Shown one piece after another: positions 30,378 through 60,532 of a stretch of 64,000 nucleotides of DNA (position 1 is the first letter of the stretch; each line of letters begins with the position of its first letter). The notes under the pieces were generated by a model. It was not told the DNA's origin. It saw only the letters and a list, made by a program, of their open reading frames with translations, and did no database searches. The DNA is taken from the NCBI RefSeq assembly GCF_023055435.1, contig NW_025964223.1:58466001-58530000 (forward strand). The letters are read 5' to 3'. This stretch comes from Haliotis rufescens (taxonomy: Eukaryota). The translations under genes were made by a program, and so were the position numbers.

Positions 30378-30496
30378 GTGTGCAGTGTGCAGTGTGCACC
30401 TTGATTTGCTGCAATAATTGGTTGACGTCATCAACTTGTCACCATGTGACTGGGGAACATCACGTGACCATAGATAGCTCCACGAGCCGTATATAA
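30378..30496 (+). promoter_or_regulatory. Ferritin A proximal promoter: 3x MRE core, CRE, E-box, TATA
   Basis: GTGTGCA x3 (TGCACAC on minus strand) 30378-30398; TGACGTCA 30423-30430; CACGTG 30461-30466; TATATAA 30490-30496. Confidence 0.65.
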
Positions 30497-30530
30497 GCTG
30501 CAGGTGACAAGAGTGGCCCCAGTCTACTCT

Positions 30531-30562
30531 TTGCTTAGCTGCGTCAGTGTGCGTACGGGCAA
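30531..30562 (+). promoter_or_regulatory. Iron-responsive element (IRE) in ferritin A 5' UTR
   Basis: ttgctt-AGC-tgcgt-CAGTGT-gcgta-C-gggcaa: CAGUGN loop, 5-bp upper stem, bulged C, lower stem; about 40 nt after the TATA box. Confidence 0.85.
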
Positions 30563-30626
30563 GAAGACAGGAGCGTCAAACTTTCATCTACAATTCCACA
30601 TTCCATACGAGAACTTATCTGCCACC

Positions 30627-30731
30627 ATGCCAGAAAGTCAAGCACGTCAGAACTACCACGTCAACAGCGAGGCGGGCGTCAACAAACAGATTAACGTCCT
30701 GCTGAACTGTAGCTATGTCTACCATTCCATG
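30627..30731 (+). CDS. Ferritin A (atypical, ferroxidase-centre-degenerate) exon 1, aa 1-35
   Basis: GCCACC-ATG Kozak at 30621-30629; translates MPESQARQNYHVNSEAGVNKQINVLLNCSYVYHSM (ferritin helix A); phase-0 donor GTGAGT at 30732. Confidence 0.96.
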
Positions 30732-31312
30732 GTGAGTGTCACACTTAGATCTCTATCTACCAATCCATGTTGAGTGTCACATCTATATTTCTATGTACCA
30801 ATCCGTGGCGAGTGTCACACCTATATCTCTATCTACTGTCCCATGTTGAGTGTTACATCTATATCTCTATCTACTGTCCCATTGTGAGTGTCACATCTAT
30901 ATCTCTATCTACCAATCCATGGTGAGTGTCACATCTATATCTCTATCTACTGTCCCATTGTGAGTGTCACATCTATATCTCTATCTACCAATCTATGGTG
31001 AGTGTCACATCTATATCTCTATCTACTGTCCCATTGTGAGTGTCACATCTATATCTCTATCTACCAATCCATGGCGAGTGTCACATCTATATCTCTATCT
31101 ACCAATCCATTGTGAGTGTCACATCTATATCTATATCTACCAATCCATTGTGAGTGTCACATCTATATCTCTATCTACCAATCCATGTTGAGTGTCACAT
31201 CTATATCTCTATCTACCAATCCATGTTGAGTGTCACATCTATATCTCTATCTACCAATCCATGGCGAGTGTCACCCTTAGATCTCTATCTCTTAATCCAT
31301 AGCGAGTGTCAC
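30720..31312. repeat. 38-bp minisatellite (16 units) spanning the ferritin A exon 1 donor
   Basis: ccatggtgagtgtcacatctatatctctatctaccaat; units start at 30727, 30765 ... 31297. Confidence 0.95.
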
Positions 31313-31922
31313 AGCTTTACAATTCTCCCACTTCCACATTTTCCACACACAATCTCCCTCACCACCTCCATTACCCCCACCACCACACACACACAACGAA
31401 CACACACAAACACACTCAACCACCCCACCCCACCCCACCCCACCCCACTCAACCACGCTCCCCCCAGCCATAGTGCACTTGTCCTGGTCTGGTGCGCGCT
31501 GACCCACAATACGTCCTTGACATTTTGTTGAGATAAAATCTTGTGTAACCCGATAGCCAATGTAGCGTTGCTATTATTCAGACAGACAACCTCTCTCACG
31601 GAGTAATAGTATATGCGTGACAATATTGGTTTATTGTTACGCTGATTGGACGTTACGTAACCCTAGAACCACCAGCTTCAGATGTAGTGTCTGCACATGA
31701 ACAGCTGTCTACATATTGCACGTGGCGCGTGATCATAATACACTATGCAGATGAAGACGATGAATTGAGAAAATAAGGACTGTTATGTTCACAATATCTT
31801 GTAGAGTTGTCTGATGAGTCTATAAAAGCAAAGAATAACTTGATAGAATATTTTATTTATTTATTTTTCTAATAATTGTGTGCTTCCTCTGCTCCGACTC
31901 AGCTGATTCTCTTGTTGTTTCC

Positions 31923-32073
31923 GGGACGGTCGAGTGGTTAAAGCGTTCGCTCGTCACGCTGAAGACCAAGGTTCTATTCCCGACATGGCTACAATATGTG
32001 AAGTCAATTTCTCGCGTCCCCCGCCGTGATATTGTTGGAATATTGCGCGGCATAAAACAATAATCACTCACTC
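31923..32073 (+). mobile_element. SINE family A inserted at the ferritin A intron 1 acceptor
   Basis: Consensus match; 14-bp TSD ctcttgttgtttcc at 31909-31922 and 32071-32084. Confidence 0.9.
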
Positions 32074-32086
32074 TTGTTGTTTCCAG

Positions 32087-32233
32087 GCCTGGTATTTTGA
32101 CCGGGATGACGTGGCCCTGAAAGGATTCTTTGAGTTTCTCAAGGATGCCTCTTGCAAGAAGCGCGAGTTCGCCGAGAAAATGATGAAGTACCAGAACCAG
32201 AGAGGTGGGCGCATCGTGCTGCAGGACATCAAG
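32087..32233 (+). CDS. Ferritin A exon 2, aa 36-84
   Basis: Acceptor ttgtttcc[51 protein letters not shown]; donor GTAATC at 32234. Confidence 0.97.
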
Positions 32234-32248
32234 GTAATCACTGAGATG

Positions 32249-32620
32249 TGGCTACAGAACGTCACATTTAACATGGGGTGGGTCCCCATATATCGTCCAG
32301 AGGCAGGGCTGCAGAACGTCACGTTTAACATGGGGTGGGTCTCCATATATGGTCCAGAGGCGGGACTGCAGAACGTCACGTTTAACATGGGGTGGGTCTC
32401 CATATATGGTCCAGAGGCGGGACTGCAGAACGTCACGTTTAACATGGGGTGGGTCTCCATATATGGTCCAGAGGCAGGGCTGCAGAACTTCAAAGTTAGC
32501 TTAGGGACGGGGCTGCAGAAAGTCAGCAGTAACTTAGGGACGGGGTTGCAGAAAGTCAGCAGTAAGTTTTTGACGGGGCTGCAGAACTTCGCAGTTAACA
32601 TGAAGACGGGGCTACAGATT
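32249..32620. repeat. 57-bp (x4) plus 30-bp degenerate repeats in ferritin A intron 2
   Basis: ggctgcagaacgtcacgtttaacatggggtgggtctccatatatggtccagaggc. Confidence 0.9.
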
Positions 32621-58017: not shown

Positions 58018-58416
58018 TCTTGTTCGTGTGACCTGTTCTATACTGAGTATAATGGGTGTATCCATACTTCACTCCAACAGCTGCTGTCAGCTGAAGGCTT
58101 ATCAGTACGCTAGACTAACCACATCGAGTGTTACGTACAATAGTTGTTCCTGGCATGTCTAAACATCTATCAGTCTACCCAATGCAGTGTATACAGTCTA
58201 GTCACGGCCCGTACACGCTCTGTGCTCATCCAATGAAACACAAGTAATCAGAGCGGAACCGTTTTCTAAAGAAGATAAAACAAAAAAAATTGGAATGATC
58301 TCGAACATTTAATACTCTATCAATCAAATACCTTTATTGGAAAAAGGCATATCCATGGATGGGGAATCAAAGGAATCAAACCGAACATAGAACCTGAATA
58401 TAAAAAAGAAAAAAAA

Positions 58417-58477
58417 GATAAATCTACATAACGTACATAGGTCATTTTCAGTACAAATGGATATATATGTATCAAAT

Positions 58478-58539
<62 letters not shown>

Positions 58540-58606
58540 AAATGGATAGATATATATATTATCCATTTGTACTGAAAATGACCTATGTACGTTATGTAGA
58601 TTTATC
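58417..58606. repeat. Perfect 47-bp inverted repeat flanking (TA)n
   Basis: 58417-58463 is the exact reverse complement of 58560-58606. Confidence 0.93.
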
Positions 58607-58750
58607 GTTTTGGTTGTTTTTTTGTTCAACGCCGCACAATATGCCCGATATATGACGTTAGCCTGTGTATAATGGAATCTGTACCAGACAATCCAGTGAT
58701 TGATACGCGTATCGACCCACGTTACGATGACACAAAATCAAGGAAGTCAC

Positions 58751-58953
58751 GGAGTCTCAGCCCGATCCATTAAGTCGCCATCACGCCACCATAGGTACCT
58801 GGAGTCTCAGCCCGATCCATTAAGTCGCCATCACGGCCACCATAGGTACCTGGAGTCTCACCCCGATCCATTAAGTCGCCATCACGGCCACCATAGGTAC
58901 CTGGAGTCTCACCCCGATCCATTAAGTCGCCATCACGGCCACCATAGGTACCT
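58751..58953. repeat. About 51-bp tandem repeat x4
   Basis: ggagtctcaccccgatccattaagtcgccatcacggccaccataggtacct. Confidence 0.9.
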
Positions 58954-60183
58954 GGCCACCTAGACTGGGACATCAAACTAACGGGCAAAACATTTTAGTT
59001 GATTTTATCATGTTATAATACGCATAAATTGCATAATACACAGCTGTGGATGTGTATCTTAGAAATCGTATCTTTGGCATCAATAAATTCCCTTTTTTTC
59101 TGCGCAAATTTACAACATTTCAAACATGGTATGGGTCATGTGGTTGCAAATTCATTTCTCACCCTAGACTTCACTGACCTAATTAATTGTACGCAAAACT
59201 ACCCAGCCAATGATTACTTGTTTACAAACTGTTGCGGGAGTGAGGGATGGTTATACTGTAGTCTTGCACCATGACTGTGGAAGATATTTATTTTATGAAA
59301 AAAACACAATCTAGAAACGTATACAAAGCAAGTCTAGGCAGCTCTAGATAGCTCTATGACTAACTCAATGGTAGTCTCGTTACACTGGTTTAATCAAATT
59401 TAACGACAGTGCTTTCAATTTTCAATAACAAAAACACAAGTCGGTATACATACTTTTACCCATCAGTTTAAAACCGGGTAATGATTCGGCACCATATTAA
59501 AAACACGCATGAATACGTATCAGATATTCATGTACCTACATGACTGTAGAAACATCAATTTGATAAAATAGCAAGTGCGTCTGTCTAACTAAAATATATA
59601 TGACCCACAAGATGTTGAGGACCCCCCGATTCACTCAGATAACTATAGTTACTGTCATGGCACTTGGTCTTTGACTAGTTCTTTTAGTAGTATATATGCA
59701 GGTTCGAGATACCAAGAGACAAGACTCTTGCCAGAACTGACTAATCCAGACACCTGTCTAAACCGGACTAATATCATCAGTTCCACAAGACCAAATTAGA
59801 CAAGTTTAACTATATAAACGAGTGATTTGGGAGGGAAATTTCGCTTATAGCTACATATTTATTTAGAATTGATGCTTAATTTTGCATTGTCGTCTTTAAA
59901 ATGACAACTTATTTATGTACCTTAAATAATTACAAGGCTACATAACGGAACCCGTGAAGGAATATTGATAAATGCAACTTAAATAACCTCCACTAAAAGC
60001 CACACCCCAAACTCGTATAATACATTGATAAATATACTCAAATGACACCTGCATAGGGTGATTGGTGTGTGAAATTCTTTGAGATTTTTTTGAATTGCAT
60101 ATTTTCCAATCTTAAGAATATATGTTTCAGCAAAACTGCATATTCATACCTTCGGTGGATTTTCCTTAAGCAAATACACCCAG

Positions 60184-60285
60184 CACGTGACATTGAGTTA
60201 ACGCCACCTCCTCAACAGGGCCTCAAGTAACCCGGATGCTCTATGACGTCACCGTATTGTTGTGACCCAGCGCTCTGCTATAAAA
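60184..60285 (+). promoter_or_regulatory. Ferritin B proximal promoter: E-box, CRE, ARE-like, TATA
   Basis: CACGTGAC 60184-60191; TGACGTCA 60244-60251; GTGACCCAGC (RTGACnnnGC) 60262-60271; TATAAAA 60279-60285. Confidence 0.65.
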
Positions 60286-60314
60286 GCGGGGTCGCGCGGA
60301 GTGTTCAGCAGATG

Positions 60315-60348
60315 TTTGTCTTGCTGCGTCAGTGAACGTACGGGCAAA
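60315..60348 (+). promoter_or_regulatory. Canonical ferritin IRE in ferritin B 5' UTR
   Basis: tttgtct-TGC-tgcgt-CAGTGA-acgta-C-gggcaaa: CAGUGN loop and UGC/C internal loop typical of ferritin IREs. Confidence 0.93.
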
Positions 60349-60427
60349 ATCGACGCTATCAAAAGCACTTCTTCAACACCCATTTAATCTCATTTATTCC
60401 CAGTTGTCAGTCCGAGAATCTAGCAAG

Positions 60428-60532
60428 ATGGCCCAAACTCAACCCCGCCAGAACTTCCACTGCGAGAGCGAAGCCGGCATCAACCGCCAGATCAATATGG
60501 AGCTGTACGCCAGCTATACCTACCAGTCAATT
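60428..60532 (+). CDS. Ferritin B (canonical soma/H-type) exon 1; gene continues beyond window
   Basis: [35 protein letters not shown] with ferroxidase ligands E25 and Y32 intact; donor GTAAGT at 60533; no ferritin exon 2 seen before 64000. Confidence 0.95.

Follow-up and report, generated by a model that had tools for sequence, protein, structure and literature searches.

Two co-oriented cytosolic ferritin genes of the abalone Haliotis rufescens, one with and one without the ferroxidase ligands, both preceded by iron-responsive elements

We have analysed a 64,000-nucleotide stretch of the Haliotis rufescens genome (contig NW_025964223.1, positions 58,466,001 to 58,530,000; hereafter, the window), which contains a complete ferritin gene, ferritin A, and the beginning of another, ferritin B. 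The coding span of ferritin A (30627-34277) is divided into four exons with GT-AG ends: exon 1, with 105 coding nucleotides at 30627..30731, exon 2 at 32087..32233, exon 3 at 33462..33587 and exon 4, coding up to the stop, at 34140..34277, all on the plus strand. An AATAAA at 34535..34540 (plus strand) is, as judged from the sequence, likely the poly(A) signal of this gene. The spliced product of 171 amino acids is identical to XP_046363769.1, named Haliotis rufescens soma ferritin. The window contains the first coding exon of ferritin B (60428..60532, plus strand), while exons 2, 3 and 4 are situated 0.7-2 kb past its end, on the plus strand of the same contig (G000:C445:58530698-58530844, 58531109-58531234 and 58531861-58531998, respectively). 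The ferritin B product equals XP_046363772.1, and its exon joints agree with RNA contigs. An earlier note on this DNA had placed the two genes about 26 kb apart on the same strand, each with a first exon of 35 codons ending in phase 0. This layout was confirmed, since the stop codon of ferritin A and the TATA box of ferritin B are separated by 26,002 bp (29,801 bp from ATG to ATG), and exon 1 of both genes comprises 105 nt, or 35 codons, with a phase 0 end at GT.

The seven ferroxidase ligands are E27, Y34, E61, E62, H65, E107 and Q141 in the numbering of the ferritin H (heavy) chain; residue numbers used below are those of the H chain minus 2 unless H numbering is indicated. Ferritin B retains all seven (E-Y-E-E-H-E-Q), as expected of an H/M-type subunit: E25 and Y32 are encoded by exon 1, and E59, E60, H63, E105 and Q139, which the earlier note had presumed, are all present in the remaining exons. 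Ferritin A, for which loss of most ligands had been noted, is changed at five of the seven columns and does not qualify as an H/M-type subunit. The alignment yields L25, Y32, K59, K60, F63, E105 and E139 (L-Y-K-K-F-E-E), so that two of the seven ligands are kept. Exon 1 carries E25L next to the retained Y32, exon 2 carries E59K, E60K and H63F along with D55, C58 and E62, exon 3 retains E105 and H116, and exon 4 carries Q139E and retains D129 and E132. The three-fold channel residues H116, D129 and E132 are thus preserved, and acidic residues at positions 51, 55, 111 and 139 were gained compared to ferritin B.

Both proteins score above the cut-off of Pfam PF00210 and belong to the ferritin family. 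Their ferritin domains begin at the N-terminus, without a signal peptide, and both have the properties of animal cytosolic ferritins (a four-helix bundle, a short E helix, a length of ca. 170 amino acids and no signal peptide). Since the fold of ferritin A predicted from the single sequence had a predicted local distance difference test score (pLDDT) of 37.7, an alignment-based AlphaFold model was used instead. The latter is an ordinary ferritin bundle, with a pLDDT of 92 and template modelling (TM) scores of 0.95-0.98 to solved ferritins among the 50 PDB rows listed. Ferritin A is an intact, conserved and spliced subunit of non-catalytic type. For this gene, RefSeq also lists the 160-amino-acid isoforms X2 and X3, in which exon 2 runs on into a minisatellite in intron 2 (window positions 32234-32635); these likely represent intron retention or an annotation artefact.

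The ligand columns were compared in an alignment of 202 rows, composed of three gene models and 199 proteins of 150-210 amino acids selected from 227, with the two read-through isoforms excluded. The full ligand set is found in 187 rows, other or incomplete patterns in seven, and L-Y-K-K-F-E-E in eight, which correspond to the ferritin A model and seven Haliotis entries from six species. Nearly all mollusc cytosolic ferritins examined are of the full-ligand kind. Across H. rubra, H. asinina, H. diversicolor and H. cracherodii, ferritin A orthologues show 89-97% identity, near the 94-99% of ferritin B, and Cys28 and Cys58 are retained in all six Haliotis orthologue rows listed. No ferritin A orthologue from outside Haliotis was present in three protein listings (119, 120 and 150 entries), which is a weak negative. 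In each of the three species that could be compared, H. rufescens, H. asinina and H. cracherodii, the database entries for A and B are located on contigs of identical size; linkage of the two genes is thus kept in three Haliotis species, as read from matching contigs, with order and distance read in H. rufescens only. A tandem array of cytosolic ferritin genes was also observed in Patella caerulea (SNE40_019103, 019104 and 019106), and the three members seen keep all ligands.

An iron-responsive element (IRE) is located in the 5′ region of both genes. The IRE of ferritin A (30530..30563, plus strand) has an A6 bulge, a C8 bulge and a CAGUGU loop, and that of ferritin B (60315..60348, plus strand) has a U6 bulge, a C8 bulge and a CAGUGA loop. 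Both fit the shape of ferritin IREs, that is, a lower stem, a bulged N6, a G-C pair, a bulged C8, a 5-bp upper stem and a CAGUGN loop, and the differences between them (U-G versus U-A at the loop-closing pair) preserve pairing. When both strands of the 64 kb were scanned, these two were the only IRE-shaped hairpins retrieved, and the earlier description of the two elements as homologous holds for what are canonical hairpins. Each stem starts ca. 36-40 bp past its own TATA box. The IRE of ferritin A is within the spliced RNA, as a contig from run X5 starts at 30532, covers nearly the whole element and extends into exon 2. Folding energies of the two elements were ordinary compared to shuffled sequences (z 0.12 and -0.67). 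A 12-mer search allowing two mismatches retrieved three sites with 2.95 expected, and because this is not above chance, the case for the IREs rests on the full hairpin. Two aconitase-family genes are present in the genome, one of mitochondrial type and one, on contig C257, of the AcnA/IRP1 (iron regulatory protein 1) type.

The promoters of ferritin A and B are similarly arranged. The TATA box of ferritin A is at 30490..30497 (plus strand), with the earliest RNA contig starts at 30528-30532; that of ferritin B was recognised by sequence at 60279..60285 (plus strand). The palindromic cAMP response element (CRE) TGACGTCA occurs at 30423..30430 in promoter A and at 60244..60251 in promoter B. An E-box is found at 30460..30468 in the former (TCACGTGAC, plus strand, with CACGTGAC from 30461) and at 60184..60191 in the latter (CACGTGAC, plus strand). 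The presence of all three motifs in both promoters, as claimed in the earlier note, is thus borne out by position. There are 12 CRE and 8 E-box sites in the window, and the only CRE/E-box pairs within ca. 100 bp of each other are those of promoters A and B, the motifs having been picked post hoc. An extra E-box variant, CATGTGAC, was seen between the CRE and the E-box of promoter A (window positions 30443-30450); together with TCACGTGAC, it resembles MiT/TFE or USF sites.

The two promoters had also been proposed to receive different inputs, from metal response element (MRE) cores in A and an antioxidant response element (ARE)-like motif in B. Upstream of ferritin A there are indeed three tandem MRE cores (TGCRCNC; 30378..30398, minus strand), which form part of a 7-bp repeat and constitute candidate sites; the whole window contains 24 such cores. 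While the triple is thus real, the ARE-like core of promoter B (60262..60272, plus strand) occurs at a frequency near chance, with 30 TGACnnnGC cores and 11 stricter ARE matches in the window, so this half of the proposal does not rise above background.

Transcription was assessed in three contig runs from three studies, which were chosen by the presence of ferritin A and matched to exon 1 of ferritin A and exons 2-4 of ferritin B; no run listed is recorded as RNA. Spliced contigs of both genes were detected in all three runs, which are of unstated tissue; the same library is not the same cell. Contig depths for B and A were about 1463/152, 2090/217 and 16155/3592, a poor measure in A-selected runs from which no ranking of the genes was drawn. 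As to the co-expression that the earlier note proposed to compare, what was observed is splicing of both genes in the same three runs.

A third cytosolic ferritin gene, ferritin C, lies on another contig (G000:C556:37318880-37324290, minus strand) and is unlinked to A and B. It encodes all seven ligands, has the same intron positions as A and B, and possesses its own IRE, which matches that of ferritin A at 33 of 35 bases. No TATA box, CRE or CACGTGAC was seen in the 400 bp upstream of the ferritin C IRE. Contigs of ferritin C are present in two of the three runs.

The existence of ferritin C bears on the origin of the pair. A local duplication had been deduced from the exon 1 layout and the IREs common to A and B, but since the unlinked ferritin C shares the intron positions and has an IRE that is nearer to that of A, these features are no proof of local duplication, and that argument does not stand. 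Protein identity is 63.2% between A and B, 65.1% between A and C and 68.6% between B and C. Four-fold sites are near saturation, with A and B agreeing at 17 of 43, and the A/B split is therefore old. Trees were built from 49 rows, from 35 rows (after removal of 14 near-duplicate or long ones) and from 33 rows without the ligand columns; in all three, ferritin A is placed on a long stem branch (0.44-0.86) without a supported sister. Approximately unbiased (AU) tests allowed A+B (p 0.369), marginally rejected A+C (p 0.041) and gave p 0.082 for B+C, and no clade was demonstrated. An old tandem origin of A and B is favoured by the adjacency of the two genes, by a type of promoter that was not seen upstream of C and by the matching contigs in three species. 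Judging from the sequences, the duplication is old, and the trees leave the descent of ferritin A, from B or from elsewhere, unplaced. A shared ancient origin of ferritin A with a ligand-less ferritin of Lingula or with vertebrate L (light) chains was unsupported by the tree without ligand columns. The Lingula anatina protein concerned, XP_023933523.1, resembles a fusion of two adjacent ferritin genes, each with Lys at position 62 (H numbering) and one of them ending with Glu141; it appears to be an L-like protein from a brachiopod, and it does not group with ferritin A.

We compared ferritin A with the vertebrate L chain. Primate L-type proteins retrieved by a representative search read Y-Y-E-K-G-E-E at the ligand columns, and Y32, K60, E105 and E139 are thus common to them and ferritin A. 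In H numbering, Lys62, Glu107 and Glu141 are common to ferritin A and L, and ferritin A departs from L by Leu at 27, Phe at 65 and the absence of Glu60 and Glu61. According to PMC11396501, a Lys62-Glu107 salt bridge takes the place of the iron site in L and stabilises the subunit. Both residues are present in ferritin A as K60 and E105, a match of residue identity only. The nucleation site of L consists of Glu60, Glu61 and Glu64, aided by Glu57 and Glu140, according to PMC12746419 and PMC13411386; ferritin A has C58, K59, E62, D55 and E138 at the corresponding positions and thus does not have the complete set of nucleation glutamates. Ferritin A does not resemble human L more closely than ferritin B does (65/123 and 66/121 identical residues, respectively), and in the tree without ligand columns, whose deep branches are poorly resolved, it does not group with L and so does not qualify as an FTL orthologue. 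Since ferritin A shares L residues without grouping with L, the likeness is likely convergent. A filter for Lys/Arg at 60, or Glu139 without Glu25, was passed by 23 of 148 representatives, those named including L-type proteins of primates and lizards, two proteins from cnidarians and one from a nematode. Lys at position 62 (H numbering), which is also found in the Lingula entry, looks like a repeated solution.

The A/B pair is like H/L in design, as both systems combine a subunit that has all ligands with one that does not, each encoded by an mRNA with a 5′ IRE, and ferritin A is outside the L family. The H/L-type analogy drawn in the earlier note accordingly stands with respect to a full-ligand B, a ligand-less A and the IREs, and is incomplete with respect to nucleation, as ferritin A lacks Glu60 and Glu61. 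Mammalian H and L genes are unlinked. In insects, the HCH and LCH subunits show a catalytic/non-catalytic split and are encoded by adjacent genes; like A/B, they form an invertebrate two-subunit ferritin, but the insect protein is secreted, whereas A and B lack a signal peptide and are co-oriented. PMC11719527 describes insect secreted ferritin as built of two subunit types, and PMC13411386 describes mammalian H and L as isostructural and able to co-assemble at any ratio. Native mixed shells are described as still unresolved in a chiton preprint (10.64898/2026.10.23.761458). PMC13026281 and PMC10799875 provide general background only.

The closest solved structures belong to a similar pair. 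TsFerB (PDB 9X0L) is the best PDB sequence match of the H. cracherodii orthologue of ferritin A (294.9 bits, with the next match at 265.8). With L25, K59, K60, W63, E105 and E139, it shares, at the level of residues, the dead site of ferritin A, as well as 11 of 23 comparable A-specific residues as counted by eye. TsFerA (PDB 9X0K), which has all ligands, is the best PDB match of ferritin B (313.8 bits, next 303.2). Each entry contains 24 chains; 9X0L is absent among the 50 PDB rows listed by Foldseek. We guess that "Ts" denotes turban snail. TsFerA and TsFerB thus make up a full-ligand and ligand-less pair as A and B do, with records that carry neither gene adjacency nor IREs, and such a pair exists, already isolated and solved, in another animal.

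Both abalone proteins have also been cloned. The cDNAs matching ferritin A are AXU24205.1 ("ferritin 1", H. rufescens), ADK60915.1 (H. discus hannai) and AMA34095.1 (H. diversicolor); ferritin A is 98.8% identical to the first two, and the database names of the cloned A entries do not mark them as non-catalytic. Those matching ferritin B are ACZ73270.1, ABH10672.1 and ABG88846.1 ("ferritin subunit 2"), and the ferritin B model equals the H. rufescens cloned entry. With both proteins cloned and close relatives of both solved, the genes are not new, and the L-like subunit is partly known. Our literature searches, whose coverage excludes most subscription journals so that absence from print is not implied, turned up no paper about TsFerA/TsFerB and none about an abalone ferritin of non-catalytic type; the non-catalytic reading of ferritin A may already be in print.

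We lean, with slightly better than even confidence, towards the view that ferritin A co-assembles with ferritin B, and perhaps with C, into mixed 24-mers whose translation is switched on jointly by IRP1 through the 5′ IREs. What was observed, and what this proposal builds on, are the gene structures, the ligand patterns, the IRE shapes, the occurrence of spliced forms of both genes in the same libraries and the conservation across six species. At low iron, IRP1 would block both cap-proximal IREs, and at high iron it would be released, so that A and B would be synthesised jointly in the cytosol and assemble into mixed shells. Ferritin B would oxidise Fe2+. Ferritin A would fill its dead site with a Lys60-Glu105 salt bridge, as L does with Lys62-Glu107, thereby stiffening the shell, and would still let iron in via the intact three-fold channel (H116, D129, E132); it may slow or redirect mineral formation and would present a shifted acidic patch (E51, D55, E62, E138/E139) instead of Glu60/Glu61. 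Several points weigh against such a mixed shell. Co-assembly, loss of ferroxidase activity and IRP binding are steps that we infer; Rfam IRE models gave no match to either IRE at the gathering score or at E<=5; and the runs were A-selected and carry no tissue record, a shared library not meaning a shared cell. With Cys and Lys in place of Glu60 and Glu61, ferritin A may not nucleate mineral at all. The TsFerB entry, with one sequence in 24 chains, probably indicates that this type of subunit can form shells alone, and ferritin C, as the third IRE ferritin, is just as possible a partner of A.

One can imagine instead that ferritin A forms mainly its own non-oxidising cage, in cells or at times different from those of B, for a different job: slow auto-oxidative iron storage, binding of anions or phosphate at Lys59/Lys60, or buffering of Zn/Cu/Cd under MRE control. 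The single-sequence shell of TsFerB points this way, although mammalian L, which is natively mixed, forms recombinant homopolymers too. Ferritin A has neither the ferroxidase ligands nor those of L nucleation, its stem branch is long (0.44-0.86), and of the two promoters only its own contains three tandem MRE cores; against this, the IRE and the CRE/E-box/TATA layout are common to A and B, and both are found in the same libraries. Conservation of Cys28 and Cys58 in all six listed Haliotis orthologue rows would suit a separate function, but TsFerB carries Ala28 and Asn58 instead, and the cysteines are therefore not a general trait. Taken together, we find a predominantly A-only cage rather doubtful.

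A three-subunit system, in which a truly L-like ferritin A mixes with any catalytic subunit, C included, and its position beside B is an old leftover or incidental, seems to us unlikely. Ferritin C has the seven ligands and shares its intron positions with A, its IRE agrees with that of A at 33/35 bases, A is slightly closer to C than to B in protein identity (65.1% vs 63.2%), and C contigs occur in two of three contig runs; moreover, tandem ferritin arrays exist without ligand loss, as shown by the three Patella genes with near-consecutive locus tags. In the AU tests, on the other hand, A+B was not rejected (p 0.369) and A+C marginally was (p 0.041), the TATA/CRE/E-box promoter common to A and B was not seen in the 400 bp upstream of the C IRE, and A-B linkage is retained in three species. 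That ferritin A is a decaying duplicate on its way to a pseudogene is highly improbable and largely refuted. Its long stem branch, a rate of change among abalones slightly higher than that of B (91.7% vs 94.2-95.3%) and the read-through isoforms in RefSeq could be taken as signs of decay; yet the frame is open, the splice sites and the IRE are intact, the same dead-site residues recur in six species and in TsFerB, and ferritin A is spliced in all three contig runs.

Another tandem pair, co-oriented and encoding divergent ferritins, was found elsewhere in the genome (G000:C24:9072500-9086500, minus strand), the upstream gene having E-Y-E-E-H-E-Q and the downstream one S-Y-K-A-E-E-K at the ligand columns, i.e. 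being ligand-less. A pattern search of 40 kb retrieved no IRE-like hairpin on the coding strand, and the pair is probably of the secreted class. In a bolder reading, which we consider rather less likely than not, abalones, and probably a wider snail group, may have evolved a third kind of cytosolic subunit, which would have acquired the Lys62/Glu141 plug of L independently, lost the nucleation site and taken on a structural or rate-damping role under the same IRE switch, with the C24 genes as a second full-ligand/ligand-less pair. If this is true, the C24 pair would mean that a single genome has undergone H/L-style splitting repeatedly.

As a conserved ligand-less partner under the same iron switch, ferritin A is a naturally occurring, independent case in which to examine why L-type subunits evolve. 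It raises the question of whether Lys62-Glu107 stabilisation suffices by itself or the nucleation glutamates are required as well. In addition, abalone "ferritin 1" may be misread in expression studies that take it for an ordinary iron-oxidising ferritin. The impact is limited in that ferritins of two subunit types have been described from vertebrates and insects, both abalone genes have been cloned and structures of their close relatives have been deposited.

Long open reading frames revealed no further gene between ferritin A and B, though short multi-exon genes would escape such a search, apart from a Tc1/mariner-like transposase remnant (window positions 45782-46911) with helix-turn-helix and DDE_3 pieces in two frames. 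tRNA-like Rfam matches were found at window positions 15974, 28569, 37922 and 44364; three of them are near-identical in sequence, and the matches look like copies of a tRNA-derived short interspersed nuclear element.

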